NCBI GenBank assembly: GCA_022703645.1
Contig: JAKLDG010000001.1
Span: 797,254 to 861,253, forward strand
Source: Patescibacteria group bacterium
GTDB lineage: Bacteria > Patescibacteriota > JACPGU01
Length of the DNA: 64,000 nucleotides
Reading direction: 5' to 3'
This document shows positions 12,919 to 60,169 of this stretch, one piece after another. The notes beneath the pieces are model-generated. The model did no database searches and was not told where the DNA came from. It was given only the letters and a program-made list of their open reading frames with translations. Within the stretch, counting starts at the first letter, position 1, and each line of letters opens with the position of its first letter. A program made the position numbers and the translations under genes.

Positions 12919-13638
12919 CTAGATATTCATTTCTTTCGGCATTTTTTCAATCACCTCTGTTTCAAATTGTGATGCGTCAACTAATTTTTGCGCCGTACTC
13001 TGATCGGGATTATAAACACCATAAAATAGTTCAATCAATTCCTGCGTATCAAGCTGAATTGCGCGCACCCCAACTCCTTGCAGACCCATTGCTACTGTTT
13101 CAGCTTTTTGAATCAGATATTTTTTTTCATCAGCAAAACTCCCAACTGCAATAGCTCCTTTTCCTGCAGAAGAACTCCTTCCGACCGCTCCTACTTTTTT
13201 GAAAGCATTCGGATAGTGCGGGATAACAACGTAGAATCTTTTTTGCATAATATTTGTCTGCTGTATTATATTTTGCACAAATATAATATAGTCGCGAATT
13301 TGAATTTTTAGTAATTCGTTACTAATTTTTTTGGAATTTTCTGCTAATCCATCCAGATATCCTTCAAGATCAAGTTTGCGCGATTGGACTACTATTTGAA
13401 TAGGAAAGTCGAGAGAATTCAAGAATGATTGGAAACCGTAAATAATTCCGTTTCTTTCCAGCTCTGATTTTAATTCAAAGTTAACAGCAGAAGTGGAAAG
13501 TACCATACGCATACTTCCATCCTTCATTACGAGAATGCCCTCCTCAAAATGATCTATATCAATATAATATTGAGTCGAACCGGGTTTTGCGGGAGCAGTT
13601 TCTACCTGTCCCTTTTGTTTTTGTTCTTGAACTGCCAT
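12919..13638 (-). CDS. Hypothetical protein (239 aa) within the T4SS-like operon
   Basis: Co-oriented and tightly spaced with the VirB4 and VirB3-like genes; no assignable motif. Confidence 0.4.
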   Translation of the reverse strand: MAVQEQKQKGQVETAPAKPGSTQYYIDIDHFEEGILVMKDGSMRMVLSTSAVNFELKSELERNGIIYGFQSFLNSLDFPIQIVVQSRKLDLEGYLDGLAENSKKISNELLKIQIRDYIIFVQNIIQQTNIMQKRFYVVIPHYPNAFKKVGAVGRSSSAGKGAIAVGSFADEKKYLIQKAETVAMGLQGVGVRAIQLDTQELIELFYGVYNPDQSTAQKLVDASQFETEVIEKMPKEMNI

Positions 13639-13705
13639 TTTGTTTTTGTTTGAAATTTTTTTTTATTATACAACACTTATCTTTTTACGCAATTGCAAAT
13701 TCTTA

Positions 13706-14257
13706 TTAATCCAAAGGTAACTCTGTTAGATTCGTATCCGCTTTCACATTTTCTCTCAATGCCGATTGCACTACCCCTGGAGAGGCAACTCTACCTTCTG
13801 TTTCGTTCGATTCCGCATTCCAACCTTTTGTATCCAATGTTAATGCCAATTCATTCAATCGCGATCTTACCACACCGCTTCGCGCAAGTTTTGCCATTTC
13901 TTTCTGTTTTTCCTTTTCCTCACTACTTGCCTTCACCATAGTTCCAAAGTCTTTGAGTTTTGAAGCTTTCTGCCATTTCATCGTTTTTGGATTTTTCACA
14001 AATCCAAGTAGAAATGCCAAAAAAGTAAGGAATGGTCTTTCGTTAATCTTCACAAAAACTATCGCAATAGTCAGAACGGCTACCGGGGCATCAACAATCA
14101 TAACAACCATTAAACCAAACATCGGCATTAGAATTGTGTAAAGAACATAAATCAGCAGAACTCCACCAACCAAAAAACCGAATTGCTTGAGCGTGAAAGG
14201 CCCAATAATTTTATCTTCGACATCCAGGTTTTGTGGAACTTTATATTGATCTGGCAT
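13706..14257 (-). CDS. VirB3/PrgI-like small membrane protein (T4SS)
   Basis: N-terminal DKIIGPFTLKQFGFLVGGVLLIYVLY plus a second TM helix, immediately upstream of the VirB4 region in operon order. The fold-level assignment is inferred. Confidence 0.4.
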   Translation of the reverse strand: MPDQYKVPQNLDVEDKIIGPFTLKQFGFLVGGVLLIYVLYTILMPMFGLMVVMIVDAPVAVLTIAIVFVKINERPFLTFLAFLLGFVKNPKTMKWQKASKLKDFGTMVKASSEEKEKQKEMAKLARSGVVRSRLNELALTLDTKGWNAESNETEGRVASPGVVQSALRENVKADTNLTELPLD

Positions 14258-14272
14258 AGATTTAGCCTCAAT

Positions 14273-17041: not shown

Positions 17042-17272
17042 TGTGTGTTTGTTTTTTATACACAAATATAGCAAAAATAAGGTTACATTCTTGTCCCTTT
17101 TGCCTTTCAATATTTATTATACTTACTGTGCAATAAAAGACAAGAGACCATTTGATATGAAAATCCCAAATCCTAAATCACAAATCCCAAACAAATCCAA
17201 ATTTTCAAAATTCAAAAGGGAACCCCGATTAATTTCAGAGTTCCCTCATTTGATTTATTGTTTAATTGTTTA

Positions 17273-18076
17273 TTATTTTTTCATTGCTTTGTTCCATAGA
17301 ACAACTTGATTTCTGCCATTTTCTTTTGCGAAGTAAAGCGCTTCATCAGCCTTGGCTATAACTTTTGGTATCAGCATATCAGTAACTCTGACGTTTGCTA
17401 TATCGCGTCCCTCTACAGAGTGAACACCGATACTTGCTGTTACGCGCACTTCTTTTCCAGTTCTTTTATTAATCGTGAACTTATTATTTTCAATTGCTTT
17501 AATGATTCTTTTTGCTGCTTCAACGCCTAATTCTTTTGGGGTATCAGGAAGCAATATCACGAATTCCTCGCCACCAAATCTGAATACTGAATCTGTTTCG
17601 CGGACTTGATTTTTTAGCGTACCGGCAACACCGCGCAAAACCATATCTCCTGCCAAGTGACCATATCTATCATTAACATGTTTGAAGTGATCAATGTCTA
17701 CCATCATAATAGTTAATGTAATCGGTTCAGAAAGTAATTGTTCGATTTGCAAATGTTTCGCTCGCAACCGTGCCAATTCTTTGGAAATATTATCAATAAA
17801 TGCTCTACGGTTATATACTTGAGTCAGTTCATCCATTGTAGCCAACATCTCATGTTTCTTGGCTTTTTCCTCAGCATTGAGCGCTAATACACCAAGCCAA
17901 AACATCGTGTCTTTTTCTTTCAGTTTACCTTGCTGAAAAAGTACAAGGATGTCTTCTGGACGCAGCGTTGAAAGATCTGACATTTTTTTCATCTTGGTAA
18001 GATTTCCGATACTGTCAGCAAGATCTTTAATTCTTTTATTCTCGTTAAGCGCAAATTGTAATGTGTTGGTTGTCAT
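17273..18076 (-). CDS. GGDEF-domain diguanylate cyclase (coiled-coil N-terminus, no obvious sensor domain)
   Basis: RRAF...MMVDIDHFKHVNDRYGHLAGD...FRFGGEEFVILLP: the GGEEF active-site motif and surrounding conserved blocks. Confidence 0.85.
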   Translation of the reverse strand: MTTNTLQFALNENKRIKDLADSIGNLTKMKKMSDLSTLRPEDILVLFQQGKLKEKDTMFWLGVLALNAEEKAKKHEMLATMDELTQVYNRRAFIDNISKELARLRAKHLQIEQLLSEPITLTIMMVDIDHFKHVNDRYGHLAGDMVLRGVAGTLKNQVRETDSVFRFGGEEFVILLPDTPKELGVEAAKRIIKAIENNKFTINKRTGKEVRVTASIGVHSVEGRDIANVRVTDMLIPKVIAKADEALYFAKENGRNQVVLWNKAMKK

Positions 18077-18331: not shown

Positions 18332-19963
18332 ATGGAAGATGAAATAAAAACAAACCAAACTGGTTTATCAGGTGATACTCCCCCAAATATCCCGGTATCG
18401 CCAGAAATTAACACACCAGTACGAAACTTATCCACAGACCCCAAACCGGCAGAAAATATTGATGATCTTTTGAATGGTACTGCAAGTTCTCCAAAACCTG
18501 CATCTGAAAGCAGTTCTTTTTATTATAATCCGGCACAAACATCAGCACCAACAAGCACACCAATACCGCCAAAAGAAGCCTCTAGTATCGACGCTTTCAA
18601 TAAAAGAATGGCCAGCTCAAGATCCAGCGGCGAAGGCTCAGGCAACAAAAAAATGATCATTGGTATAATAATAGCCGTTGTGGTTGTCGCGCTCGCTATT
18701 GCAGGATATTTATTGTATTTAAATACAAAAAAATATTCTGTAACTATTAACGTAAATCCGCCTGAAGCTAATATCTCAATACCCGGATCTGCCAATGCCG
18801 CTGCCAAAAACGGTAAATTAGTCCTAAATCTTAAAAAAGGAACCTACTCCGTATCTATTTCGAAAGATGGCTACTCAACCTTGAAACAAACACTTAATGT
18901 AAAAGGATCCAGCAGTGTGAATTATAATCTCTCACAGTTTTTGACTTTCAGCCCCGTACTTGAACAGAATATAATGAGCCCAATTATTAATACTGAATTG
19001 GGAACTATTATTTATCTGGAAAAAGGCGAACAATGGACATCAATTAAGGAGTATAATTATAACTCCGATGATAAAAAAACAGTTATATTGGCGGATTCAT
19101 TGCCTGATATCAAAAAAATCACATGGTCCAAAACATATCGACAAGCAGCTGTAAGAATCAAAAATTCTGAACAAAATAATGGCTCATTACTTCCTTTTCA
19201 GGAACAATACGGCGAAGGAACGGAAATGAATTGGGTGATTGATCTTGACCGAAAAGATGTAGTAAATGTAAACGTTAAACCTCTTAGCCCAGATATAAAA
19301 AACATTACATTCAAACCTGACGGCACCAAGATTGCATACTATTATAATAATGGAACCAAAAAAACACTGGCGATAGCAAATATCGACGGTACTAACTACC
19401 AAAATATCGTTGATATCAAAACCATTCAATTTGATCCGGACGTAATCTGGTCTTCAGATGGGGTAAGAATAGCAATATTTGCAGATAATCCTGGCGGAGA
19501 AACGAACGTCTTCGCCTATAATTTCGAAACTAAAACCGAGATCGACCCAAATACCAATATTGAAACTCCTTCTGGATCAACAAGCGGAAGTAATGCAAAA
19601 CTTTCAACTGACAATATATCTTACGGAGCATTGTTTTCACCGTCAGCTAGCAAGATCATATTTAATTCCGGAGCAAAATTGAGTATTTATGATTTTGAAA
19701 AAGAGGCCGGTTCCGCGCTGCTTGATACTGGAGCAGAAGCAAAAATAACGAACTGCACTTGGTTATCAGATGATACAGTAATTGCCGTAACAGACAATAA
19801 GGAGTTAGTAAAAATTAAAACAACCGGTGAAAAAATCACAATCCAAATCAATCAAGAAGGATTGCCTGAGACAATCACCGGAATAATTAATGATGTTTCA
19901 AATGTTTATTTAATTGGTGACACGGGAATTTTCTCAACTCCTATCGCAAATTTAAATAATTGA
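18332..19963 (+). CDS. Membrane-anchored protein with PEGA-like domain and PD40/TolB-like beta-propeller repeats
   Basis: Low-complexity N-terminus, one TM (IIGIIIAVVVVALAIAGYLLYL), YSVTINVNPPEANISIPG...GTYSVSISKDGY (PEGA-like), later WSSDGVRIAIFAD... PD40-like motifs. Confidence 0.5.
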   Translation: MEDEIKTNQTGLSGDTPPNIPVSPEINTPVRNLSTDPKPAENIDDLLNGTASSPKPASESSSFYYNPAQTSAPTSTPIPPKEASSIDAFNKRMASSRSSGEGSGNKKMIIGIIIAVVVVALAIAGYLLYLNTKKYSVTINVNPPEANISIPGSANAAAKNGKLVLNLKKGTYSVSISKDGYSTLKQTLNVKGSSSVNYNLSQFLTFSPVLEQNIMSPIINTELGTIIYLEKGEQWTSIKEYNYNSDDKKTVILADSLPDIKKITWSKTYRQAAVRIKNSEQNNGSLLPFQEQYGEGTEMNWVIDLDRKDVVNVNVKPLSPDIKNITFKPDGTKIAYYYNNGTKKTLAIANIDGTNYQNIVDIKTIQFDPDVIWSSDGVRIAIFADNPGGETNVFAYNFETKTEIDPNTNIETPSGSTSGSNAKLSTDNISYGALFSPSASKIIFNSGAKLSIYDFEKEAGSALLDTGAEAKITNCTWLSDDTVIAVTDNKELVKIKTTGEKITIQINQEGLPETITGIINDVSNVYLIGDTGIFSTPIANLNN

Positions 19964-19979: not shown

Positions 19980-21362
19980 ATGAATGATAATGCAAAAAGC
20001 GGCCTGTTCTGTTGTTTACTGCCGGCAATTTTATACATTGCTATTATAGTAATGCTGTTGGCTTTTTTATTATCAATACTTTCCCGCTCCGGCGGGCCTT
20101 GTTCTGGTGTAAAAAGTTTTCTCTTCAATGTCGTTTTGACGGGTAATTCACAAGAAGCGAAAGATGCTCTCTGCGGAGCATCAAAAGAAGCTTTTGGCGC
20201 GCCACCGGATGCAGCCGCTGGTGCATATATTTATGATGGTGGAAACACATCAAGCTGCAGTAGCACAGGATTAATTAATACATCTCGCTACATTAATGAC
20301 CCAAATCTTCCAGGCTGGATAAAAGACGCGTCTGATAAATATTTTGGGGGCGACCAAGCATTATTAATTTCTATTATTCAGGTAGAGTCGGGCTGGAAAC
20401 CAAATGCATATAACCCTTCTTCCGCTACAGGACTGGGACAATTTTTGACAAGCACTGCACAAAACAGAAAATGGGTTGAATTCCATGGTGGTACTGACCC
20501 ACAAGGCAAGACTTGGCCATTCGGAACTATTTATACCGACAAACCACCACCTTCTAATGACGCAAGGTTTGATCCTGAAAGATCTTTATATGCTGGCGCA
20601 AGGTATTTCTCTGAAACAATGGGATACCCAGACCTACAAGGTTTTAAAGATTGTAAAGGTGCTACGGGAATTCAATTAGCTTATTGCGCATATATTTATC
20701 ATTATAATGGAGGATGTTATTTAAAACCCGGATCATCGACATATTCTGCCACCCAAAAAGACCTCTGCACAGCCGCAGTGAAGGCTGGTAATGAAATGAA
20801 AACTAATTATGCAAATCTTACTAGTAAAGGTCAGTGTGTTGCAATCGCAGGAGCACTTGCTGATGGCCCTATCGGACCACTTGTTTCCGGAAAATGCAGT
20901 GAAAGAATAATGTCCGAAGCTCAAAAATATATTGGGATACCATATAGCCAAGGCAAACCTACTGGTTCACCAAATGGACATTGCGGAACAAATTCGAATG
21001 GTCGCGAAGGGGTGGGCTCTTTGGGAATTGATTGCTCTGGTTTTGTAAGTAGAGTATATAGGGATTCAGGAATATTCCCAGAAAACAAAAGAGGGTTGTG
21101 GTGTAATACTACAGCAACATTGCCAGGTAACTCACTTTTACGTAGATTATCCGGTCCCAAGGAGCTAAAAACTGGTGATCTAATTGTTTCTCCTGGACAC
21201 GTTGTAATATTTATTTCAACAAACACTGATGGTTCAGCAAGGATCATTGAATCAGGTGGTAGTGACCCTGGAGGTGGAAGTGTAAGAATTACAACTAGAA
21301 GTAAGGTTAAGGCCTTTGATATCAAAAGAAATGTATATCTCCGAGCGCAGGCCTGTGAATAA
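19980..21362 (+). CDS. Bifunctional cell-wall hydrolase: lytic transglycosylase (SLT) domain plus C-terminal NlpC/P60 peptidase domain, N-terminal TM (VirB1/PrgK-like)
   Basis: SLT motif LISIIQVESGWKPNAYNPSSATGLGQF. NlpC/P60 catalytic Cys context IDCSGFVSRVY with downstream GDLIVSPGHVVIFI. Confidence 0.65.
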   Translation: MNDNAKSGLFCCLLPAILYIAIIVMLLAFLLSILSRSGGPCSGVKSFLFNVVLTGNSQEAKDALCGASKEAFGAPPDAAAGAYIYDGGNTSSCSSTGLINTSRYINDPNLPGWIKDASDKYFGGDQALLISIIQVESGWKPNAYNPSSATGLGQFLTSTAQNRKWVEFHGGTDPQGKTWPFGTIYTDKPPPSNDARFDPERSLYAGARYFSETMGYPDLQGFKDCKGATGIQLAYCAYIYHYNGGCYLKPGSSTYSATQKDLCTAAVKAGNEMKTNYANLTSKGQCVAIAGALADGPIGPLVSGKCSERIMSEAQKYIGIPYSQGKPTGSPNGHCGTNSNGREGVGSLGIDCSGFVSRVYRDSGIFPENKRGLWCNTTATLPGNSLLRRLSGPKELKTGDLIVSPGHVVIFISTNTDGSARIIESGGSDPGGGSVRITTRSKVKAFDIKRNVYLRAQACE

Positions 21363-21417: not shown

Positions 21418-21975
21418 TCAACCAGCCCCCTCTCCACATCTCTCATAAGGGGTTTGCTTAATAAGATTTCCCGAGAAATCTCTTACCACATTTCTTCCTT
21501 TGTACAAAACTTGATTAGGGCACTTTCTGCTATTATCCACGATTTGATCAATCACTTTGTATGAAAAAAATTTACCCTTAAGTATAGGCAATGTGTCGAT
21601 ATTACTATTCTCGATCGTTTTAATCTTCTTGGCTCCAATATTATAGATAACAATAATTGTTGTCATAAGATCATCATTGCTATCGAGACCATCAAAAATA
21701 AAATTCTTACCATTGGGTGACCATAAAATATTCGCTGTGCTTTGGATTATAAAACGGCTATCCTTTTTGAACTTTGCAGCAACTTTAAATTTGCTATTTT
21801 TGACTGCAAGTTCTTTTACGCCAATATAACAGTAGTCACTCGGCTCACAGAAAACCGCGACCATCCACATCCCATTGGGAGATAGAAACTCAGATATTTT
21901 TTTTGCAGCCTGCACATCAGTTGATCTCAACATCAATGCAAATATAAAGAACATTATCGCAACAGTTTTTTTCAT
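21418..21975 (-). CDS. Secreted protein with PD40-like motif (paralog 1 of 3)
   Basis: Signal peptide MKKTVAIMFFIFALMLRSTDVQA; WSPNGKNFIF motif. Confidence 0.5.
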   Translation of the reverse strand: MKKTVAIMFFIFALMLRSTDVQAAKKISEFLSPNGMWMVAVFCEPSDYCYIGVKELAVKNSKFKVAAKFKKDSRFIIQSTANILWSPNGKNFIFDGLDSNDDLMTTIIVIYNIGAKKIKTIENSNIDTLPILKGKFFSYKVIDQIVDNSRKCPNQVLYKGRNVVRDFSGNLIKQTPYERCGEGAG

Positions 21976-22070
21976 AGTCAGTCTCCTCTTTTCTCTGGTT
22001 TTTTAAAACTACTGCTTTATTTTTGAATTTTCTTTTTGAAAAAGAAAATGTAATAAAAAGCTATAAAATA

Positions 22071-22099
22071 ATAATACCATATTTGGCTAAATATCGCAA
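22071..22099 (-). promoter_or_regulatory. Sigma70-like promoter (TTGCGA-17-TATTAT on minus strand) with palindromic operator ATATTTAGCCAAATAT in the spacer
   Basis: rc reads TTGCGAtatttagccaaatatggTATTAT. The whole ~110-bp upstream region is duplicated (~75% identity) at 23525-23650. Confidence 0.5.
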
Positions 22100-22174
22100 T
22101 TATTACCCTATTCATGAAATAATAGAGAGCCCGTGAGGACTCCCTAAAATTTTGATTTAAAAAAACTTTGTTAC

Positions 22175-22858
22175 TCAATTCCCTTCTGAATCATATTCTG
22201 ACGCATACTCAACCTTTTCGAATACCTTGATCGCACGCTTCGAAATCTGTCTTCCTTCAAATGAGAACTCATACATAATCGCGTCATAAAACGTTGTGTT
22301 TGCGCCATCGCTAAAGCCGCCATCGACCCCAGATTGGTAGTCTTGAATGCATATAGAGAAAGAGTTTTTGTGCATAAAAATCTTTCCCTCGGGATTATAT
22401 GACACATCACCTTTTTTATCAGGAGCACAAAATCCCTCATGACTGCCGGGAGAGATAATGCTCTTTCCGAATACTCCTCCTTTTTCAGTGTCATACAAAG
22501 TTACATTTGAGTCATGGAGTGGAGTCCCGACTTTCAGAAAGACAAAATATCTACTGTCAGCTGACCATACTGGTTTACCAATAAACAGGGTGTGGTACTT
22601 CGCATATTCCTTTTTTTTGTCAAAGAAATATCCATCGGTTATAAGATAACTTTGCCCATTCATCTTCATATGAAAAGTACAGACAGTCTTATATTGAATA
22701 GTATTATTGGCAGCGCATACACTCTTTTCATAAGCTTCTTTGCAGTTGTGAACAGCTTTTTTCTTCCCGTCCGGTGAGGGATAAGAAGAGTTTGTGGCTC
22801 TTGCAATCCCTCCAAAAATAATCGACAGCACCACAGCAAACAAAATAATTCTTTTCAT
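22175..22858 (-). CDS. Secreted protein with PD40-like motif (paralog 2 of 3)
   Basis: Signal peptide MKRIILFAVVLSIIFGGIARA; WSADSRYFVFL...LYD motif; 28-bp spacing to the upstream paralog (operon). Confidence 0.5.
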   Translation of the reverse strand: MKRIILFAVVLSIIFGGIARATNSSYPSPDGKKKAVHNCKEAYEKSVCAANNTIQYKTVCTFHMKMNGQSYLITDGYFFDKKKEYAKYHTLFIGKPVWSADSRYFVFLKVGTPLHDSNVTLYDTEKGGVFGKSIISPGSHEGFCAPDKKGDVSYNPEGKIFMHKNSFSICIQDYQSGVDGGFSDGANTTFYDAIMYEFSFEGRQISKRAIKVFEKVEYASEYDSEGN

Positions 22859-22886
22859 TTCACTTTCTCCTTTTTGGATTTTTTTC

Positions 22887-23513
22887 TTACGGACAGTTTT
22901 CTATCGCAATATCCGCGCGAACCGTATGTTCTCTTTCTTTCCAAGATACTTTCTTTCCAGTTGCAAGATTTATTTGGAATTTTGTCGCTTTCCACCCGCT
23001 CTCACAATCAGCTTCACCCATTAGTGATAAGTGAAAATAGGTAAGCAATCCATCAGAAAAACGAACAAAACCCGGATAAGGAACGAATGATTTTTCTTTC
23101 GCTTTCGAAAGATATTTCTCGGAAATAAATCCAATGGTGTTGTCTACCACAGGATCATTATTGTTGAATGTATCCACTATCTTCCCGCTGCCGGTTTTCA
23201 AATCATAGAGAAAAAGATATGCTTCCCGAGAATTTTCCGATCCTGCTATGGCGATATAGCGTCCGCCCGGATCCCATGTAACTTCTGATCTTGGAACGCT
23301 TTCACCGGAAATACTAAATATCTGTTTTCTTGATTTTTGTGTTACGTTTCGAAGATAGTACCGACATGACCACGAACTTTCCCACGAGCCAGAACACTCC
23401 TTGTTTACCATAGCGCCACTTTTACTGACGTAATCTTTGTTGTCTTTTTCGGCCATGGCGTAAACCCCAAAAAAGAAAGCAAACAGAAAAACAAACCCGC
23501 AAATCCTTTTCAT
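22887..23513 (-). CDS. Secreted protein with PD40-like motif (paralog 3 of 3)
   Basis: Start moved to MKRICGFVFLFAFFFGVYAMA (rc of 23511-23513), preceded by a gggggaagga SD. WDPGGRYIAIAG...LYD motif. Confidence 0.5.
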   Translation of the reverse strand: MKRICGFVFLFAFFFGVYAMAEKDNKDYVSKSGAMVNKECSGSWESSWSCRYYLRNVTQKSRKQIFSISGESVPRSEVTWDPGGRYIAIAGSENSREAYLFLYDLKTGSGKIVDTFNNNDPVVDNTIGFISEKYLSKAKEKSFVPYPGFVRFSDGLLTYFHLSLMGEADCESGWKATKFQINLATGKKVSWKEREHTVRADIAIENCP

Positions 23514-23609
23514 TTCCTTCCCCCTTTTTTTTAATTTATTTTTTAAAACTGCTGCTTTTTTAATAACCTTTTCCACAAAAAAATAAATAAGTAAAAAGCT
23601 ATCGAACCA

Positions 23610-23638: not shown

Positions 23639-23786
23639 CATTTTTCTCGTTTAAAAAAAATAAATTTTATTAAAAAAACGCTAAAAAGCTACTTACATTG
23701 TGCCGGGTTTTTGGATACAATGAATATGGACAAGTGCGTCTATCTATTTTTGCGTATAAAAATATATTTTATTTATTTATAATTTT

Positions 23787-26700
23787 TTGTTCATGCCTGA
23801 AAAAGAAGAAAACCAAAACAAAAGCCAGACATCAAAAACTCCTGAAGCTGAAAAAGCTGCGTCATCAAACGCACTCCAAAAACAAGCGAGTGGTTCTTCT
23901 GGCGCAAATACCGGCATACCAACAGTCGGCAAAACAGCGAATAGCCCAACTGGGGGAATTGCTTCGAGTGGATCTGCGGGGGGAAGGGCTGGTGGTGCAA
24001 TTGGTGGTAATGCAGGGAAAGCAGTTGGCGGGGCGGCAGGAAAAGCCGGAGGAGGACCAGCTGGCGATGTACAAGATTATGCAAAAGGTGCAAAGGCCGC
24101 TGGGAAAGCAGCAATGGAAGGCGCAACAACCCCCGAAGATGAGGAAGCAATGGGAAGAGCCGCAGCCAAAGCAGCTGCTACAGCAGTAGCCGGAACGGCA
24201 GGAACAAAAGCACTAGAAACGGCTGAAAAAGTCCCGATCGCTGGAGAGCAACTGAAGAAAATATACAGTAAAGCAGGTAAGACAATATCGACCTCAATTA
24301 AAGTTATATCCTTTCTTATACTTCTGATTTTTGGCATGACTGCCATTATATTCTTTGCAATTATAAGCAGCATCAATAATGGATCAACCGGACAGACTGC
24401 GCCACAGAAAGCTGATCTCAATAACCCAACTCAGCGATCTGCCCTACATATTGTCCAAGCTTACACAGGTGATCAAGATATGAAAAGAGAAGCTGTTAAT
24501 GATATTTCCGAAGGGTTGATGACTAAAATTAGTACTGTTAAAGGAATACAAAACGCTGTTCCCATCAACCTTCCTTCAACAGTTTATGCAGAATCAGAAA
24601 GCGATGTTGATGAAACAGGCATTGACATTAAAGAAGACGGAACAAGTAACATACCAAGCAATGAGGTGAATCTAGATGAACAGGTTATTGATGAAACGAC
24701 TCAAGATTTACAATCTACTATTTTAGCCCTTAATACGGCTGACGATCAGAGCCCAGCAGGCATTACAGCTTTGAAAACAAAAGTTCAAGTATGGAAAAAC
24801 AGCCTCAGCGAAAGCGAAAAGACAAAATATAAAAACGAAATAGAAGAAATTGATAAAGATATCGGGCGCCTAACGGTTATAGCTTCCATAGGATCAACCG
24901 CAAAGTTAGTAATACCGGCAGCAGACCTGGCTTATATTAGAAATAATGAGGTTGATATTCGAGTAGTCCAAGCTTTAAATTATCTTGTTACCCCAAGAAA
25001 TCTCGGTGGAGCAGGATACAGAAAGATTAAGGTTAGGAGAATAAAAAGCCAGTACGACAGCAATAAAAGAAAGTTTGACCGAGAATGGTATGAGCCAGAA
25101 GATGCGGAGGAAGTTGTCAGCGCCCATTTCGAGGGACAGGCTTTTGATATATCAGGAATTGACTATGCTGAAAGAAGACTCTACAAAAAAAGAGTTATAA
25201 AGAAGATGAGTAAAACAGAACCTCGCCCGCCAGTTGATATTATGGTTGTTGACCAATCAACAAAACTTGGTAAGTCTGATGCTTTCGGAACATCGAACAG
25301 CAGCACTGGAAACACATTTGGAACGCTTTTTGAAAATCAAGCCTTGAGCGAACTATATTCAACAATCGCAGAAAACACCGGCTACGATTTCTCTCAATAC
25401 GACATCCGTGGCAGTAATCTGAATGATGCTGTGAAAACTATTGGTATTGTGGCTCTTGGCGAAGAACTTGGAATAAAAATTGATCCAATTCAAGATAATT
25501 CTTCATCAGAAAAATTCTTTTCTAATCTGGGAGGAAATCTAGTTTCAAGCTGCCTTGATATACCCGAAAGCGCTCTTAACATAGATAATCCTGAAGAAAT
25601 AACCAGCAACATAGGAAGGGAAACGATTGCCCAAAGAATGAAAATAGAAGCGCTATCTTTAAGTGGAAATACCTCTGCGGAGATACTTGAAAGTGTCGGC
25701 AAGAGAAAAATTGAAAAAAATCTAGGGATAAGAATTGGCTCACTAAACTATATGAGCGCAAACGATACGATCTTTGCTTACATTGGGCAAGTTATTGTAG
25801 AACAAACTCTTAATCTTGCAGGTGGTACATTTGCTGGCAACAACATTGACTCTATCAAGGAAAAAATTGGTGGTGATAGTTTTAATAGTATTTTTGCTAA
25901 TGATCCGGGGCAAATAGATGCTATTTTGAGCTTACCAATAGATGATGGCGACACTCAAAAACTCTTGGATAAAGAAGAGTCCCCTATTCAATATAAAGAA
26001 AAAATTGGCAGAGTTATTATCCAAGCAAAAGTATCGAATTATAAAAACCACAATACTGTCGGAGAAATAAAAAAAGTCAGTAGTGATAATATATTTGGTC
26101 GGTGCGGAGGAATGTTTAACCGAAACGCAAATCTTATTTCTTCTGAAAATGATTGTTACCTAATGCAAACAAGTAATACCCAGCAAAACCAACAAGATGA
26201 GGCTTTTGATATCCCAGAAGGTAGCGCCGCAAGATTGTTCCCAGAAAATGGAAGGTCGGATTTTCAAACTTTTCATGATATTGGGGTTGATGAGGTGGCG
26301 AAAAGACTAACTGATATCGAGGAAGAAAGACAAGAAATAAGAATGTGGTTAACTGAATATAAAGACAAACAGCTTGGAGAACTAACCTTCCTGCGCATCA
26401 GTGATGTTTTGGACAATATCACGGATCTTGAGAAAAAAATAAAGATTATCAGAGACAAAGGAGAAAAAACCACACAAGAAGAAAAAGATAACCTAAGTGA
26501 TTATACTTCACGACTGGAAAAGATTTCATGGGTAAGAAGCGCGGTCAGTCTGTCCAGCCCCAGTAGCATAGATGCTCTTCAGATTACTCTCGCCAAAAAT
26601 ATTGAGGAAGGAATCGATGGCGAAAATGCCTCAGAAATTCAGGCAAATCTCGATGGTTTCAATAGAGCACTGAATAAATATGAAATCTACAAGAAACAAT

Positions 26701-29700
26701 TATTTAATGACTATACTGAAGAAAAAAAACAAAGCCAGTTAGAAATGGCGAATTTTGCTGCTAATTTAATATTATTAGGAGGAAAGTTAACTGATGGAAA
26801 ATGGACATTTGGCAATTCGGATTTATTCACGGTAATTACAGAGGACCCATTGAACCAGTTGCTTGGATTACCAAATAACTCAGTATCAAAAATATTCAGA
26901 ACGGACAGCGGGTCAGATGTTTTTTATACTGTCGGAGAAAATAAAATTGAAGATGCAGATTACAAGCAAAATAATAACTACAAATCACGGGCGCTATCTC
27001 GGATGCAATTTCTTGAAACCCAAATAGATGCTAGTAATAAGAAAATTGAGGAACTAAAAAAAATAATGGGGCAGGATGCCAGCAGCCAAATTAAAATGTA
27101 TGAAAATAGTATTGCGGTTCTGCAGGATCAAGAAGCCATGGAGCAGGCAAACGCGCTAAGAGATAATAGCACCGCCGAAGAAATGGCAACCAAGAGAAAG
27201 AAAAGCGAATCTCTTGGAATAAAATGTTCCGATCTAAATATAAAAGATATTCTCAACGACCCCTCAAATCAAATCATAAAAATTGGCGCGAGTAAATTAG
27301 AGTCTTCATTGGAATTGCCGAGCGGTTCATTGGCAAACCAAGCAACAAATAGTGAAGAAGAATATCCTATTGATTACATTCCTGAACCAGAAGTGAGTCC
27401 TTCGGCGACAACTAAAGCACAGGGTAGTTTATTTGATAGTTCGGGTATTGGAGCTGCAAAAATAGAGGAGATACTCGAAATGCCAAGTGGGATTTTTGTC
27501 GGCACTGAATTATCGGAACTAATATATAACCTTGGTGGGGAAGAGACGCTATACAAATATTTCGCTCCAGATAATAGCTATGAAGAAATCCAAACCCAAC
27601 TGCCAATCAGCGCAACAAGCGAAGAATGGTTCCGTTCGATTTTCAAAAATACCGACGCAAAGTTAGGAATTGATGAGGGTTCAACATATGATCTTTTTGT
27701 TGAAGCTTTAACCCCAAATGAATATGCTGCTATAGTTGGCAAAAGCCATCTTGAAGGAGAAGGCCGAGATATAATTTCAAAAGAATTAAATTTAAATATC
27801 GGTGGATATGGAATTGGTTATGATGACATACAAAGCCTCTTAAAGGGCGATTATATAGGGGTTGCTCTAAAGCTTGGAGCGAAGACAATGGATGAGGGAA
27901 TGGATCTGCCTGAGGGAACAACAGACGGTTTGATTGACGATCCAGGCGCTGATTGCACCATCCAAAATGATGAGACAGGAACTATAGATAGTTGTATCTC
28001 TGGTATTCTTGAGGCGAGCGGAAAAGAAAAGCTTGCTGAGTATATGCACGTATACTCCCAAGCTACAATATCTGATAATACATCCGAAAACCTCGGACAA
28101 ACAAAAATTGAGGAAACATTAAATGAGATTCATCCTAACCCCGATCTCCCGCAAGGCTGGCTATCGGGCGCGAATTTGACTCAGGTAGTCGAAAATATCG
28201 CGCGCCTCAACAACGACAACCTGATGAAAAACATGGCTAAATATGATGCACAAACAATGAAGGATTCTGAAAATGCCATGTTACAAAAATTTGGATTTGA
28301 TCTGGAAGATACGACACAAAACACAGTAAAATCTCTACAAAAAAATGGCTTTGCATTAAATTCGCCTGCTTATATCGTCGCTAAAACGCTGGACGAACAA
28401 TTGAAAATTCCAGTCGGAACAACAGCGCAACTTTTCCAGGGGAAAATGACCTTGAAGAAATTCAAGAATATTGTTTATAAGAAATACTCTCAAAATGAGG
28501 TTAAGACTTTTATTTATGGTAAGCTATTTGATGACGAAACTATCAGCACCATGGAAAAACTTGGTATTAGCCAGGATTCGGTATTGGAATTTGCCACTGA
28601 TTTGGCAAACGGTGGTACAAAAACAAAGGATATGTTGGAGGCAAATAAAGATAAGATAACTGGAATTCTTTCACAGGGCAACGGTAGTGACGCATGGGGA
28701 GAAATGACAATTGAAAGCAGGCTTGACCCTGGAAAAAAATTGAAAAGCGGATGGTTTGCTGGCAGTACACTTCAAGATGTAAAACTCAATATTGCCGCAT
28801 TGATGAATGCGCCAGAAACCCTGCCAGCTGGTCTTACTTGGGACACATGGAGAAAAACCCTGGTAGCCAATACTGCCAGCTGGATGACATCAGCAGAAAA
28901 AAATCTCTTGGCAGCCTTCCAGATTACTGACGGTCAATTCCAAAACCTGAAAGCAATAAAAGACTTTGATTTTACGACAAGCGAAGGAAAACAATCATCA
29001 GCCTATAATGCTTTCTTGGCAGACGATTCATATTTCAGCTTGAAACCCGAAACAACATTGAAACTTTTTAAGGGAGAGATTAGTATTACAGACTACACAC
29101 ACAGAGTTCAAACTGCATACGCAACACACAAAGCAACTAGCGCAGCGGTCAAACAATTTCTACCGGAAAATGTTCAAGATGTTTTGAACCGGCATGGTTT
29201 ATCACCAGAAGATGTTGTTTACGGTATAAAAAATCCTGAAACCCTTTTTACCAAAGTCCTTATGACATCTATGTCAGAAAAAGAAATGGGAATATTGGTT
29301 GGTTTGGGTTCTGTTTTTGAAGGAACCAAATTCGGCGCAGGAATAGACCAAATAAAAGGAGAGTTTACCGATAATCTCGCTCAAAAGAAAATAGAACAAA
29401 CACTCGGTCTGATACCAGGAACATTTTCCAAAGACTCTTCACTCGAAGCGATAATGGAAGCTAATGGTGTCGCCAAATTTGCCGCAGCATTTCGAATTAA
29501 TACCAATTACAGCGAGTCGGAAGCCAACTTAAGAACTTTTTTGAAAAATTCTGTTTTTAGAAAAGATATTAATTCTCCTTATTGGAGTCAGACCACAAAT
29601 ATTTCGCGATCCACAACGGTAGATAATCTATTGGAAATATTAAACGTTGAAACGCCAAGAGGAAGCACAACTCCAACTAAAGCGCTACTACAAAAAGAAA

Positions 29701-31916
29701 TTAGTATTACTGACTATATTGAGCTAGTGAGAAAATCCGCGTTCACTCAAGTCGCTAAACCCGGATTTCTTACCGGTCTTGCGGCTTCGCTAGTAAGCGG
29801 AGGAATGGGAGACCAGAATGATCCGAAAACTCAAAAAATAATGAGTTACGCCAACCTGCTAACAAATGTTTATGAAACACTCAAAGATCCAAAATCATTA
29901 AGGAAAGATAAAGAAAAACAAGCCACGCTTTTTGCTTCTTTACAATCAGTAAGTGGCTTTGATCTCGATGATAAGGCTGGCTTTACGACAGGAACAATTG
30001 AAAACCTCATTAAATATCCCAATGAGGCGCCATCGATACTTCTCGCTCAGGGACTGCGCGGATTATCTGAAAAAATATTCGGTGAAAAAGACACTGGACT
30101 AAATGAACTTTTGACTCTTTTCCAATATTATATACCGACCGATATTTTAAACCCGGGTTTTTATTTTGGCGATGCCGAGATAAAAACAGATGCAGCAGAC
30201 AGCTGCCCAATAGGAAGTAAGGACCTATCGGAAGAAGAGATGGTTAATTTTGTAAAAAATAACAGAAGCCGCTGCGGACAATTAATTTTGAACACTACGC
30301 TCAAAGGTTTTATTGAGAATACTACAGCAGTTAAACAAGACATAATAAACCCTGATACCGGGGAGGTTACTGAGGGAGACGTGATAGTGCCTGGAATCCA
30401 ATTACCAGACAAAGATCTAGAAAATCTGAAAAAAGGCGACATGAAGATCTTTACCGCCATGAGTATCACAAACATGGTAAACCGCGCAAACACACAACTG
30501 GACGAGGAGGGGCATAACTCCCAGATAATACCTGCGGGATTCCAATTAAATTATGAGGATGTTGCCGCCGCAATGGGGCTGCGCAGCAAACTTACTGCAA
30601 GTGAAGAATCAAAAATGAGAGATGACTTTACACAAGATTATATAGAAAAAAATGGTATCCCACTTTTGCCAAATGACCTAAAAGAATATAAAAACGCCGA
30701 GAATCAATATATTTTAGACCACTCTGTTAATATAAAATCTATTGCGCGGAAAAATATGATCAATGGTTATATGGATGCGCAATTAATGGCTACGTTTAAA
30801 GTACGCGGTGTTACCCCAATACTACCCGGGTTTACTGCTGCAATGTTTAGCGGCAATGATAAAGATAGAAATAATATGCTTTTGGCTTGTGGTATTAATT
30901 ATGCGATAAGTACTACGGGTGTATTGGGACCAGACATAACCAACAACGCCTACATTATGGATGCGCTTAATTCGTTCACTGAAACTCGTGATATTAATAA
31001 GCTCAAGGAAAGTTTTGCCAGCAGAGAAGGTATCCAAAATACTGTCTTCAGTTTTGTTGACCAAGGTTTATCCAAAAAGCTCGGTATTGAACTACCCCCA
31101 GACACAGCAAAAAATCTCTTTAGCTATCTTACTACTGGGAAATTTAGCACCCCTGGTTTTAGTAAAGACACTATACAGGGTCAGGTATATGGATTAATAG
31201 ACAAACAAATTGGTCTTCCTTCGGGGACAACAGGGTCGCTTATTTCAAACTATAAGCAATTTGCAGCTGGAAACATGTCTCCGACACAATTTCTCCTCGT
31301 TGCTGTTCAATTACTTTTTGGTAAGGCACTGATGAAGGCAGATGCTGAGCTTGGGGTGCCACCCGGAACATTGTCAGCTGCAATTGGTGTTGGTGTTGCT
31401 TATCTGGCTATGACACAAATCGCCGCTAGTGTTGCCGCAGGATCAGTTAGCGCAGGATCATTTGCCGCTACCATGGGTCCGATAGGTCTCTATATAGCTG
31501 CCGCCATGTTTGTCTACACTTTAGTATTTGGATTTTCGAAAATAGAAATGCAGATGACGTGCCCTGGAGACCCGAGCTTTATTGCCGGTGGTCCAACAAC
31601 TCAATGGTGTAGAGCAGAAGAAGAGATGCCGCAACTTTTAACTTCCTGGGCACAAATAAATATACGGCGACTCATTGAAGATATGCTGCGAATAGATGAA
31701 CCGACGAGAACAAATGACCCCAACCTTTTCCCTACGATAATGGGTACTTTCCGGAAAGAAGACGTTGACTATTTCCATGGTCAAGAAACGCTTTCAAACG
31801 GTCAAAAAAGCCCTGGTCTTGCTGACGAAAAATATTCGCGCTATGAGGTATTTAGAGGAATGAGAGATCTTTGGCAGAGTGATTATATGGGCGACTTTGT
31901 TCACATTGGATATTAA
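23787..31916 (+). CDS. Giant membrane/surface protein (2709 aa)
   Basis: Gly/Ala-rich low-complexity N-terminus (locally GC-rich DNA 23900-24240). TM near residue 175 (ISFLILLIFGMTAIIFFAIISSI). Huge hydrophilic body with a recurring degenerate motif LG(I/L/V)P(S)GT..L and repeated KGEISITDY blocks. C-terminal TM cluster (AVQLLFG...AIGVGVAYLAMTQIAASVAAG...GLYIAAAMFVYTLVFGF). Confidence 0.7.
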   Translation: MFMPEKEENQNKSQTSKTPEAEKAASSNALQKQASGSSGANTGIPTVGKTANSPTGGIASSGSAGGRAGGAIGGNAGKAVGGAAGKAGGGPAGDVQDYAKGAKAAGKAAMEGATTPEDEEAMGRAAAKAAATAVAGTAGTKALETAEKVPIAGEQLKKIYSKAGKTISTSIKVISFLILLIFGMTAIIFFAIISSINNGSTGQTAPQKADLNNPTQRSALHIVQAYTGDQDMKREAVNDISEGLMTKISTVKGIQNAVPINLPSTVYAESESDVDETGIDIKEDGTSNIPSNEVNLDEQVIDETTQDLQSTILALNTADDQSPAGITALKTKVQVWKNSLSESEKTKYKNEIEEIDKDIGRLTVIASIGSTAKLVIPAADLAYIRNNEVDIRVVQALNYLVTPRNLGGAGYRKIKVRRIKSQYDSNKRKFDREWYEPEDAEEVVSAHFEGQAFDISGIDYAERRLYKKRVIKKMSKTEPRPPVDIMVVDQSTKLGKSDAFGTSNSSTGNTFGTLFENQALSELYSTIAENTGYDFSQYDIRGSNLNDAVKTIGIVALGEELGIKIDPIQDNSSSEKFFSNLGGNLVSSCLDIPESALNIDNPEEITSNIGRETIAQRMKIEALSLSGNTSAEILESVGKRKIEKNLGIRIGSLNYMSANDTIFAYIGQVIVEQTLNLAGGTFAGNNIDSIKEKIGGDSFNSIFANDPGQIDAILSLPIDDGDTQKLLDKEESPIQYKEKIGRVIIQAKVSNYKNHNTVGEIKKVSSDNIFGRCGGMFNRNANLISSENDCYLMQTSNTQQNQQDEAFDIPEGSAARLFPENGRSDFQTFHDIGVDEVAKRLTDIEEERQEIRMWLTEYKDKQLGELTFLRISDVLDNITDLEKKIKIIRDKGEKTTQEEKDNLSDYTSRLEKISWVRSAVSLSSPSSIDALQITLAKNIEEGIDGENASEIQANLDGFNRALNKYEIYKKQLFNDYTEEKKQSQLEMANFAANLILLGGKLTDGKWTFGNSDLFTVITEDPLNQLLGLPNNSVSKIFRTDSGSDVFYTVGENKIEDADYKQNNNYKSRALSRMQFLETQIDASNKKIEELKKIMGQDASSQIKMYENSIAVLQDQEAMEQANALRDNSTAEEMATKRKKSESLGIKCSDLNIKDILNDPSNQIIKIGASKLESSLELPSGSLANQATNSEEEYPIDYIPEPEVSPSATTKAQGSLFDSSGIGAAKIEEILEMPSGIFVGTELSELIYNLGGEETLYKYFAPDNSYEEIQTQLPISATSEEWFRSIFKNTDAKLGIDEGSTYDLFVEALTPNEYAAIVGKSHLEGEGRDIISKELNLNIGGYGIGYDDIQSLLKGDYIGVALKLGAKTMDEGMDLPEGTTDGLIDDPGADCTIQNDETGTIDSCISGILEASGKEKLAEYMHVYSQATISDNTSENLGQTKIEETLNEIHPNPDLPQGWLSGANLTQVVENIARLNNDNLMKNMAKYDAQTMKDSENAMLQKFGFDLEDTTQNTVKSLQKNGFALNSPAYIVAKTLDEQLKIPVGTTAQLFQGKMTLKKFKNIVYKKYSQNEVKTFIYGKLFDDETISTMEKLGISQDSVLEFATDLANGGTKTKDMLEANKDKITGILSQGNGSDAWGEMTIESRLDPGKKLKSGWFAGSTLQDVKLNIAALMNAPETLPAGLTWDTWRKTLVANTASWMTSAEKNLLAAFQITDGQFQNLKAIKDFDFTTSEGKQSSAYNAFLADDSYFSLKPETTLKLFKGEISITDYTHRVQTAYATHKATSAAVKQFLPENVQDVLNRHGLSPEDVVYGIKNPETLFTKVLMTSMSEKEMGILVGLGSVFEGTKFGAGIDQIKGEFTDNLAQKKIEQTLGLIPGTFSKDSSLEAIMEANGVAKFAAAFRINTNYSESEANLRTFLKNSVFRKDINSPYWSQTTNISRSTTVDNLLEILNVETPRGSTTPTKALLQKEISITDYIELVRKSAFTQVAKPGFLTGLAASLVSGGMGDQNDPKTQKIMSYANLLTNVYETLKDPKSLRKDKEKQATLFASLQSVSGFDLDDKAGFTTGTIENLIKYPNEAPSILLAQGLRGLSEKIFGEKDTGLNELLTLFQYYIPTDILNPGFYFGDAEIKTDAADSCPIGSKDLSEEEMVNFVKNNRSRCGQLILNTTLKGFIENTTAVKQDIINPDTGEVTEGDVIVPGIQLPDKDLENLKKGDMKIFTAMSITNMVNRANTQLDEEGHNSQIIPAGFQLNYEDVAAAMGLRSKLTASEESKMRDDFTQDYIEKNGIPLLPNDLKEYKNAENQYILDHSVNIKSIARKNMINGYMDAQLMATFKVRGVTPILPGFTAAMFSGNDKDRNNMLLACGINYAISTTGVLGPDITNNAYIMDALNSFTETRDINKLKESFASREGIQNTVFSFVDQGLSKKLGIELPPDTAKNLFSYLTTGKFSTPGFSKDTIQGQVYGLIDKQIGLPSGTTGSLISNYKQFAAGNMSPTQFLLVAVQLLFGKALMKADAELGVPPGTLSAAIGVGVAYLAMTQIAASVAAGSVSAGSFAATMGPIGLYIAAAMFVYTLVFGFSKIEMQMTCPGDPSFIAGGPTTQWCRAEEEMPQLLTSWAQINIRRLIEDMLRIDEPTRTNDPNLFPTIMGTFRKEDVDYFHGQETLSNGQKSPGLADEKYSRYEVFRGMRDLWQSDYMGDFVHIGY

Positions 31917-39043: not shown

Positions 39044-39409
39044 TTATTGGGTCAAAAAATCCGTTCCTTCTCCTGCGCCAGTAATTCCCAACTTAGACAT
39101 TACGAATGACTTTAGAGCGAAAGCTAAGGCAATAATTACTACACCAATAATCGCATAAGCAATAGTCTTATTCGCTGTCGCTACCTTTTCCGGATTACCA
39201 GCAGAGGTAACATAATTAAAGCCACCCATAATTACATAAATAACTGCGACAAAGCCTGCGGCGCCCAACAGCACATTAAGAGCGGTGTTTACAAAATTCG
39301 CTAAGCCCCCCTCCTCAACAAATCCTTCAACTGCTAAGGCTTTATTGCTTGCAAAAAGTATTGCAGACGCAGAGATGCTTGTGCTAATTAATTTAATTCG
39401 TTTTGACAT
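39044..39409 (-). CDS. T4SS pilin-like small protein (VirB2/TrbC-like; signal peptide plus two hydrophobic helices)
   Basis: Signal peptide ...ASNKALA, then GGFNYVTSAGNPEKVATANKTIAYAIIGVVIIALAFAL. It shares the motif [ST]xGNP[DE]K with the next gene. Confidence 0.5.
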   Translation of the reverse strand: MSKRIKLISTSISASAILFASNKALAVEGFVEEGGLANFVNTALNVLLGAAGFVAVIYVIMGGFNYVTSAGNPEKVATANKTIAYAIIGVVIIALAFALKSFVMSKLGITGAGEGTDFLTQ

Positions 39410-39582: not shown

Positions 39583-40218
39583 TCAAGGGCTTGTTGTGGT
39601 TGAGCCAGGGGTATTTATTTGAAGTTGTTCTACTGCGCTGGGGTTGCTTGCTGGATTGATATTAGCATTATTATAACCGATAAAATTGATAATAAACTGT
39701 GATAAAGCGTAAAACAGTATCAGGACTACCAGCCCAAGCAAGGCATAAGTAATCATGGCGGTGGCTTTTTTAATTTTATCCGGATTGCCTGTGGAAAAAA
39801 GATAATTGATTCCACCCCAAGCGATCAGTAGCGCAACCAGCACAAATCCAAATTCAAGTCCCAGTGATAATATATCTCCCATAGTCTTACCAGCAAAAGT
39901 AAAAATTGCTGCTGAACTGGTTTGCCCCGAGGCTTTTTCTTGAACTCCACTCAGTAGTCCAAAAAAAACTCTTGCTCCTACCACCACTATTAATGAGGTA
40001 ATGCCTGCTTCTACATATTTACGCGCTTTTTTAATTTTATCTGGATTGCCACTGCTGCTAATATACATCAAGGTAGCAACCATAAATGATATAAGACAGG
40101 CAAGCAAAGTCAGCCAATAAGTAACAGAATAAAGCGAGCCAAGAAAATTTGTACTGAAATTAATATCGGTCAGGCTTGTTCCAGAGACGATACTATTAAA
40201 ATCAAGATTAGTAGCCAT
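39583..40218 (-). CDS. Tandemly duplicated T4SS pilin-like protein (two pilin modules in one ORF)
   Basis: Two copies of the module: ...YISSSGNPDKIKKARKYVEAGITSLIVVVGA... and ...LFSTGNPDKIKKATAMITYALLGLVVLILFYAL. Confidence 0.5.
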   Translation of the reverse strand: MATNLDFNSIVSGTSLTDINFSTNFLGSLYSVTYWLTLLACLISFMVATLMYISSSGNPDKIKKARKYVEAGITSLIVVVGARVFFGLLSGVQEKASGQTSSAAIFTFAGKTMGDILSLGLEFGFVLVALLIAWGGINYLFSTGNPDKIKKATAMITYALLGLVVLILFYALSQFIINFIGYNNANINPASNPSAVEQLQINTPGSTTTSP

Positions 40219-58149: not shown

Positions 58150-58224
58150 GGAAGTGTTTCTGATAATATTTTAATGAATAATATTTCGTACAATAAAAAA
58201 AAACTCAAAAAGGAGTGATAGCAA

Positions 58225-60165: not shown

Positions 60166-60169
60166 ATCA

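Follow-up and report, generated by a model that had tools for sequence, protein, structure and literature searches.

A large part of all bacterial diversity is made up of Patescibacteria, which live attached to other microbes. To our knowledge, no VirB8, adhesin or outer structure has been identified among the extracellular parts of their type IV secretion system (T4SS). In the candidate phyla radiation (CPR), T4SS are MPF-FATA-like, chromosomal, relaxase-poor and often located near dnaA (PMC12102498), and in Southlakia epibionticum the T4SS cluster is essential for epibiotic growth (PMC10633639). This requirement extends to SEML1_0007 of strain ML1, a protein of 1113 amino acids (aa) encoded between VirB4 and a lysozyme/NlpC protein (PMC10633639), to which a 'Hedgehog/DD-peptidase' domain was assigned on the basis of structure (PMC10633639, Table S2). 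Here we analyzed a stretch of 64,000 nucleotides from a Patescibacteria group bacterium (contig JAKLDG010000001.1, positions 797,254 to 861,253; hereafter the window), in which a single gene on the plus strand encodes a membrane-anchored protein of 2707 aa next to T4SS genes and the replication origin genes. Our best reading is that this giant protein is functionally part of a chromosomal monoderm-type (MPF-FATA-like) T4SS locus. A more specific role is tentative: at a probability of about 45%, it would be a T4SS-associated scaffold of the wall zone, whose two conserved ends form a LAS-like, possibly metallopeptidase-like domain, here referred to as the clasp.

We searched 1.84 billion cluster representatives (50% identity) exhaustively with phmmer, the query being the conserved N-terminal segment joined to the C-terminal tail, and obtained 109 relatives at E ≤ 1e-3, 33 of them at E ≤ 1e-10. 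All hits with a source name are from Patescibacteria (e.g., 'candidate division CPR3' and 'bacterium ADurb.Bin212'). Scanning the species genomes of GTDB, we found five loci, which belong to Microgenomates, Saccharibacteria and unclassified Patescibacteria; every one has a relative of 2,360-2,817 aa or one truncated by its contig. Word-indexed homologue searches with the full protein recovered only 2 relatives; with the C-terminal alignment they recovered a single fragment (P0004) and missed P0001-P0003, although the alignment held their exact C-termini. Complete members (71 of the 109) range from 1,381 to 3,091 aa and fall into two size classes of ~1,380-1,600 aa and ~1,850-3,090 aa. Five parts are common to the family, namely a Sec-type N-terminus, the conserved N-segment, a variable region of repeat modules, a hydrophobic hairpin and a C-tail of ~125 aa. 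In 47 of the 71 complete members the N-terminus resembles a signal peptide, often with an AxA-like site; in 12, the window protein included, a variable cytoplasmic extension comes before a signal anchor. Comparison across related genomes, which the initial annotation of this DNA had proposed, thus showed a family conserved at its ends with a central region highly variable in length and sequence. In window numbering, conservation is highest at aa 400-700, 1300-1400, 1800-2100 and 2200-2707, and lowest in the cytoplasmic head, at aa 900-1000 and at aa 1400-1800. The N-segment and C-tail co-occur in every complete member, and no contiguous, unsplit clasp was found among the 109 hits, the two halves always being at least ~1,100 residues apart.

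The conserved ends carry distinct sets of motifs. Members share (V/I)D.R, LNYLVTP, GGAG and S.H..GQA.DIS in the N-segment, and RKEDVDY together with H(I/V)G(Y/F) at the extreme end of the C-tail. In the window protein the N-half of the clasp (aa 365-497; 24885-25283, plus strand) contains LNYLVTP, GGAG and SxHxxGQAxD, and the C-half (aa 2583-2707; 31539-31913, plus strand) contains RKEDVDYF and the terminal DFVHIGY. Residues D388, R390, P401, G406, G408, H445, G448, D452 and Q488 are invariant in 34 aligned sequences, and R416, Y421, E431, S443, A450, P2647, T2652, R2654, G2692 and H2704 are conserved in at least 90% of them. The terminal His is four residues from the C-terminus in most members and eight in a subgroup ending in HVSFGGLF. 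We modeled the two halves with AlphaFold2 (AF2), joining aa 365-497 directly to aa 2583-2707 and using full-length relatives as alignment rows (34 rows). The resulting model had a mean predicted local distance difference test score (pLDDT) of 83.9, with 153 of 258 residues at pLDDT ≥ 90 and the tail at 90-97, and a predicted template modeling score (pTM) of 0.83. For two pieces of equal size, a pTM of 0.83 indicates a confident mutual arrangement, that is, one domain, and the N-segment and C-tail are therefore predicted to form a single compact unit. Both pieces again exceeded pLDDT 90 in a second model from a 34-row alignment that added aa 2290-2582, in which they were accompanied by a helical array followed by two hydrophobic helices. 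Domain-wise structure prediction with Foldseek, also proposed earlier, thus gave models that are confident at the ends and no structural relative: the best matches of the first model in PDB and BFVD had E values of 0.4-0.8, with no M15 entry among the matches listed, and the second model matched AhlB at E = 3.9.

The protein had initially been described as lacking any recognizable catalytic motif. This description does not hold, since SAHFEGQAFD (aa 443-452, with His445 and Asp452; 25119-25148, plus strand) follows the LAS/M15-type zinc-ligand-like pattern SxHxxGxAxD, its His and Asp are invariant in 33 relatives, and a near-invariant His, His2704 (codon 31902-31904), lies near the C-terminus. 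S.H..G.A.D is the zinc-ligand signature of VanX and VanY. The SxHxxGxAxD pattern of the LAS clan was found across the 34 aligned sequences, and His2704 sits in a predicted strand of the part that co-folds with the N-half in the AF2 model, the residue at −3 being variable. One relative, P0019, gave a sub-threshold VanY match on the motif (E = 0.09). When 31 mini-constructs, in which the last 22 residues were joined to a trimmed N-core, were run singly against Pfam (24,736 models), seven matched Peptidase_M15_4 (best E 0.003), four VanY (0.006), four Extensin-like_C, three DUF5715 (0.0033), one HH_signal and one Peptidase_M15_3; nine other families were matched by one or two members each. Extensin-like_C, DUF5715 and HH_signal presumably belong with M15_4, VanY and M15_3 to one Pfam clan (CL0170). 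A convergence of weak matches on M15, VanY and Hedgehog families among 24,736 models is not a product of chance. The family profile also aligned by hhalign with VanX (PDB 1R44, sequence verified; P = 0.007 over 79 columns) and with a Ply500-type VanY profile (P = 0.01 over 98 columns), overall P values being 0.002-0.01 against VanX and VanY profiles of low diversity; the motif was paired with its counterpart in both alignments. The predicted order of elements (helix, strand, motif, beta-hairpin, the 2,085-residue insertion, long helix and final His-bearing strand) presumably parallels the LAS order.

Several observations weigh against placing the clasp in this clan. At position −3 from the terminal His, where VanX has a catalytic acidic residue (the general-base Glu/Asp), conservation is lacking and D, G, K or A occurs. 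The mini-construct members with matches are related to each other, and all matches cover the same ~20-50 residues. Pfam matches of relatives reach no more than 16.8-17.5 bits against a gathering cut-off of 25, and they span the motif and ~25 upstream residues but never the C-terminal His; adding the last 22 residues to the N-core still did not extend the M15 and VanY matches to it. The window protein itself has no LAS-clan match in Pfam, the hhalign probabilities are 4-13%, and no LAS entry was among the matches that Foldseek listed for either AF2 model in PDB or BFVD. The motif thus resembles a LAS metal site, and the clasp is a candidate member of the LAS fold.

Directly ahead of the C-half lies a hydrophobic helical hairpin (aa 2526-2548 and 2557-2579; 31368-31529, plus strand). 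A cluster of three to four transmembrane helices had been claimed for the C-terminus, but hydropathy and AF2 give two hydrophobic helices of 23 residues each, separated by an eight-residue loop and preceded by an amphipathic helix. In the family the hydrophobic region is 28-56 aa long, usually with a central G-P or N-P and an uncharged turn. The clasp requires the tail to be on the ectodomain side; two passes through the membrane would put it there, as would a re-entrant dip where the region is shorter, and we infer such a topology. A point against it is that the region measures only 28-34 residues in some relatives, where a double membrane pass is geometrically doubtful. The hairpin adjoins the clasp, and the clasp sits 135-416 residues from the N-terminal hydrophobic segment. 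The conserved parts are predicted to lie next to the membrane, and the variable helical loop alone would reach outward. 'Surface protein' is a plausible description.

The loop between the two halves (aa 498-2525; 25284-31367, plus strand), delimited by the conservation profile and by the AF2 model of aa 2290-2525, consists in part of degenerate repeats. BLASTP self-comparison showed no internal repeats, which were revealed by profile methods alone. Jackhmmer iteration over the family recovered a module of ~88 aa, made of two LGLPxGT loops followed by 'G.IS..DY', with the pattern G...hE..LGLP.GsF.G.... and then G...F...F..P..hD..LgL..GTT..LL.G.IS..DY...V. The window protein has six strong copies, or ten counting weaker ones. 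Module 1, a half module (aa 602-651), and module 2 (aa 657-744) lie at 25596-26024 (E = 2e-9 and 5e-28) and were also recovered by a hidden Markov model (HMM) trained without the window protein. Module 3 (aa 1219-1321; 27447-27755), likewise detected by jackhmmer and an HMM trained on relatives, is followed by modules 4 and 5 (aa 1428-1566 and 1634-1776; 28074-29120), found by jackhmmer and HMM in a stretch poorly represented in relatives (alignment occupancy 0.16-0.29), and by module 6 (aa 1857-1983; 29361-29741), found by jackhmmer and HMM; all are on the plus strand. Repeat detection thus upheld the recurring LG(I/L/V)PxGT motif of the initial annotation, for an HMM of ~30 aa trained on relatives alone found 12 copies, compared with a mean of 0.02 and a maximum of 1 in 100 residue shuffles. 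The EISITDY blocks, which had been listed as a separate element, are indeed present (at aa 1762 in module 5 and aa 1969 in module 6), but they and the LG(I/L/V)PxGT motif are parts of the one module, with KGEISITDY forming its tail. In the AF2 model aa 2290-2525 are all-helical, and this region is helix-loop-helix because the LGLPxGT elements form the loops between consecutive helices. From the shared modules, the region upstream of aa 2290 is probably helical too.

A protein of this length raises the question of whether the open reading frame (ORF) is real. The uninterrupted plus-strand frame in the program-made ORF list spans 23787-31916 (8.1 kb). The most likely start is the ATG at 23793, giving a coding sequence of 23793-31916 (2707 aa plus stop), with an alternative TTG two codons ahead at 23787. 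An NCBI entry (P0001, 'hypothetical protein P5096_01125, Patescibacteria group bacterium', on an 867-kb contig) is identical to the product over its full length (100%). Apart from the unusual length, the only feature in favor of a mis-assembly, or of several ordinary genes having been fused, is the set of spurious ORFs that overlap the GC-rich 5' part (23698-24189 on the plus strand, 23791-24150 and 24077-24421 on the minus strand). Against it, the identical protein occurs on three contigs of independent origin, and the two ends are predicted to co-fold. All 71 complete relatives keep N-segment and C-tail in one ORF, which excludes a frameshift or fusion artefact; this explanation is refuted in practice, and we give it next to no weight. 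The single 8.1-kb ORF of the initial annotation thus stands, as do its Gly/Ala-rich N-terminus in locally GC-rich DNA with spurious overlapping ORFs and its transmembrane helix near residue 175. The N-terminal extension (aa 1-171; 23793-24305, plus strand) is presumably cytoplasmic and is not conserved among relatives (alignment occupancy 0.1-0.4). Its GC content is 0.51-0.56, reaching 0.56 at 23900-24230, compared with 0.40 for the whole ORF and 0.364 for the window. The hydrophobic segment that follows (aa 172-190; 24306-24362, plus strand) has a Kyte-Doolittle mean of 2.8 and a Lys-rich flank on its N-terminal side, and is annotated here as a signal-anchor helix. Neither the whole protein nor its sub-fragments gave a usable match in Pfam, NCBIfam or PHROGs, and PDB sequence searches found no match, whether the query was the single sequence, a profile of 6 sequences or a whole-family profile of 34. 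At its 3' end the gene is arranged tail to tail with dciA, the stop overlapping the end of dciA by 4 bp (31913-31916), which leaves no intergenic room for a terminator.

The gene lies in or beside a virB6-virB3-trsD-virB4 cluster in the window and in the 10 other loci compared, here referred to as L001-L005 (compared by BLASTP synteny), L006, L007, L008, L009 and the P0027 contig. In the window the cluster is on the minus strand and comprises, by Pfam, genes for a VirB4-like ATPase (10378-12441), a TrsD/TraC-like protein (12919-13638) and a PrgI/VirB3-like protein (13706-14257), next to a polytopic 945-aa VirB6-like candidate (14273-17110), recognized by its transmembrane profile and by TrbL Pfam matches on its positional counterpart in L008, the first gene there (947 aa). 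This run (10378-17110) is syntenic with L001, L003 and L004. Genes for a PEGA/beta-propeller membrane protein (18332-19963) and for a VirB1-like wall hydrolase with SLT and NlpC/P60 domains (19980-21362) precede the giant gene on the same strand, both assigned by Pfam and in an order conserved in relatives. Downstream and convergent are dciA, dnaN and dnaA, then rnpA, yidD and yidC, and beyond these origin genes two genes for VirB2-like T4SS pilins (39044-39409 and 39583-40218, minus strand; PF18895), an arrangement of pilins also found in L001-L005, L007 and L009. The earlier statements that the protein belongs to a small-genome episymbiont and that its neighbors are origin, T4SS and secreted-protein genes are in line with these assignments. 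No homology of the giant protein to named T4SS subunits was found (VirB1-B11, PrgB/PrgK/PrgL, TrsD and others; Pfam, NCBIfam and PDB).

L001-L005 show the window's neighborhood again, and the contigs with other members are in agreement with it. L006 holds genes for PrgI, a TraC-like protein, VirB4, YkuD and a 183-aa protein, then its 1,405-aa member and DciA. In L007 the member stands between NlpC/P60 and SLT genes, followed by RecF-DnaN-DnaA and, further on, pilins, and on the P0027 contig it is preceded by Peptidase_C39_2 and Peptidase_M15_4. L009 (CPR3) has PEGA, SLT and C39_2 genes and, three genes later, the member; a single small gene separates it from DnaN and DnaA, and pilins lie beyond. 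In L008 a run on one strand comprises TrbL/VirB6, a 465-aa gene, PrgI, TraC-like, VirB4, a 430-aa gene, Peptidase_M23, C39_2/C70 and, last, the giant gene, whose start abuts the end of the preceding gene; seven other genes (~6 kb) separate it from dnaN. In that locus the giant gene travels with the T4SS genes and not with the origin. Weighing against a specific T4SS linkage, dnaN and dnaA are near every examined locus, so the two linkages can be separated by L008 only. The hydrolases adjacent to the giant gene differ between lineages (SLT, NlpC/P60, YkuD, M23, C39_2/C70 and M15_4) and the giant gene is constant; hydrolase stretches lie just upstream of the member in L008 (5962-10001), L006 (8191-9339) and the P0027 contig (8146-9279).

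Other genes of the window were also recorded. A gene for a 126-aa '23S rRNA-intervening-sequence protein', a bAvd-like four-helix bundle, lies between the VirB4-like and TrsD/TraC-like genes (12479-12859, minus strand), and L003 and L004 showed no counterpart there. Beside the T4SS genes a GGDEF diguanylate cyclase (17273-18076, minus strand) has equivalents of 58-59% identity at the same position in L001 (3410-4213) and L003 (6888-7718), and a GGDEF gene is also present in L009 (1994-2836) and on the P0027 contig; this conservation suggests a link between cyclic di-GMP and the T4SS locus. Between the VirB1-like and giant genes are three genes for small signal-peptide proteins of 185, 227 and 229 aa (21418-23576, minus strand), which showed no significant Pfam match, no detectable paralogy and no counterpart in L001-L005. 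Near the locus, Ig-like N_BRCA1_IG domains occur in two more large proteins, wall-active or proteolytic: a 1306-aa Amidase_2 and SpoIID protein (42344-46264, plus strand) and a 753-aa S8 subtilase (47522-49783, minus strand). A large serine recombinase and a resolvase plus HTH gene (54783-57120), followed by a low-GC stretch (0.29-0.32) at 58000-64000 in which several small ORFs without annotation accompany HAD hydrolases and a MazG-like protein, may represent an integrated element.

As a T4SS-associated scaffold of the wall zone, the giant protein would be exported by Sec, after which the two-helix hairpin would bring the chain back outside and hold its C-terminal end at the membrane. The tail would dock onto the N-segment just outside the membrane, and the clasp would close the ~2,000-residue helical region into a loop projecting into or through the wall. 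The whole loop may be viewed as an insertion into a divergent LAS-like domain, in which the putative His/Asp/His site, formed by SxHxxGxAxD and the C-terminal His, would bind metal in a LAS-like ligand pattern. The most likely role of the clasp would then be local binding or cleavage of peptidoglycan stem peptides, and the loop may scaffold or shield a passage for the T4SS channel and the VirB2-like pilus. The variable loop may also be the part that contacts the host.

This last possibility could be the principal function, with a fast-evolving helical loop binding the host surface like the PrgB mating-pair adhesins and the conserved ends serving merely as an anchor. The great variability of the central region in length and sequence next to conserved ends would fit, T4SS loci of Patescibacteria have yielded no PrgB-like adhesin (PMC12102498), and an attachment role has been proposed for giant membrane proteins in CPR predators (PMC8080830). 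We nevertheless consider a mainly adhesive role unlikely, given that no lectin, Ig-like or beta-rich adhesin domain and no LPXTG are present, that an invariant His/Asp/His and other polar clasp residues are unexpected in a mere anchor, and that the gene is paired consistently with wall hydrolases and not with type IV pilus genes. The same hydrolases (YkuD, M23 and SLT) also serve ordinary wall turnover, and the protein might accordingly maintain the envelope or wall in general, its place near the origin reflecting dosage or history and not a mechanistic tie to the T4SS. Here dnaN/dnaA, yidC and rnpA, close by at every locus, and the GGDEF gene conserved alongside count in favor. This explanation appears somewhat less probable still, as the L008 gene stays in a co-directional T4SS run seven genes away from dnaN and the L006 member comes within two genes after VirB4.

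The hairpin allows a further interpretation, in which it would insert from outside into the host membrane, as do type III secretion system (T3SS) translocators and ClyA-type alpha-pore-forming toxins, and in which the mature protein, released in members with a cleavable signal peptide, would open a route for T4SS substrates or nutrients. An epibiotic lifestyle needs some access to host contents, the protein is helical where modeled, the hairpin is conserved and usually has an uncharged G-P or N-P turn, and 47 of the 71 complete members have a signal-peptide-like N-terminus. A contact-dependent translocator is nonetheless improbable: the signal anchor and cytoplasmic extension of the window protein and 11 others argue for retention in the membrane of the producer, the hairpin abuts a clasp that lies 135-416 residues from the N-terminal hydrophobic segment, and no similarity to known pore formers was seen (AhlB, Foldseek E = 3.9). 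A new T4SS contact device, with the loop shut by a split metallo-domain and the hairpin inserted into the host membrane and not only that of the producer, forming the missing distal conduit by which monoderm Patescibacteria would deliver substrates or draw nutrients, is speculative to a similar degree. The conserved hairpin with its usually uncharged turn, the signal-peptide-like N-termini of most members and the lack of a matching known fold are compatible with it. Three known types of protein were rejected as candidates. A bridge-like lipid-transfer protein of the AsmA-TamB type would share the anchor, but the modules are helix-loop-helix and no AsmA, TamB or DUF490 match was found. An LPXTG adhesin of the PrgB type does not fit a protein with no C-terminal LPXTG, no adhesin or Ig-like domain and a helical modeled region. 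For a VirB1-type hydrolase the giant protein has no SLT, CHAP or LytM domain, and that role is already filled by the gene at 19980-21362.

Literature searches for a description of the family returned only general statements on CPR T4SS and giant proteins. The family is absent from the T4SS components catalogued in PMC12102498 and is not mentioned in PMC10633639. With no curated family match and no describing paper in the literature searched, the function is still undescribed, as the initial annotation had it. An origin-proximal T4SS context had been published before; relative to the literature searched, the family, its ~88-aa module, the end-to-end composite domain and the metal-site motif all appear to be new. 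The gene is often the largest in the T4SS locus and is conserved from Microgenomates to Saccharibacteria, yet it was never annotated. If it encodes a T4SS accessory, it would be a candidate for the element, wall-spanning or host-facing, that this system still lacks, and it comes with a clear structural hypothesis: the two ends of the chain would assemble one domain with a zinc-peptidase-like site, across an insertion of 2,000 residues and a membrane hairpin. The end motifs (LNYLVTP...SxHxxGQAxD and RKEDVDY...HIG[YF]) provide a simple annotation marker in CPR genomes.

In comparison with known systems, the window protein shares with the LAS / Peptidase_MD enzymes (VanX 1R44, VanY/Ply500/CwlK and the Hedgehog N-domain) the SxHxxGxAxD motif with its His and Asp. 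A further near-invariant His falls in a predicted C-terminal beta-strand, with an aromatic residue after it (FVHIGY; EWWHY or DYPHFEL in LAS). Weak profile matches, a similar predicted order of elements and peptidoglycan hydrolase genes as neighbors add to this likeness. The window family differs in that its halves are parted by ~2,085 residues including a membrane hairpin, that it has no match at a curated threshold and that no conserved general-base Glu/Asp precedes the last His. We know of no LAS enzyme with its halves split in such a way. IpaB/YopB of T3SS and ClyA-family toxins are likewise helical with a short uncharged hydrophobic hairpin, but there is no sequence or fold similarity, and several members of the window family carry a producer-side signal anchor. 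PrgB-type adhesins and giant episymbiont surface proteins are, like the window protein, large, lineage-variable, exported and linked to cell-cell contact, whereas the window protein has no LPXTG, Ig-like or adhesin domain, is helical where modeled and is closed by a conserved end-to-end domain. The VirB1-like hydrolases PrgK (pCF10) and TraG (pIP501) are membrane-anchored, extracytoplasmic, wall-active T4SS accessories, as proposed here for the window protein, but they use SLT, CHAP or LytM domains, of which the giant protein has none. SEML1_0007 differs in having a contiguous LAS domain (residues 951-1105), and no protein of ~1113 aa is among the 109 family hits, the comparison with the window family being one of description and not of sequence. 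As a large hypothetical protein in a Saccharibacterial T4SS cluster beside dnaA, it is, by analogy, the closest known functional counterpart of the window protein.

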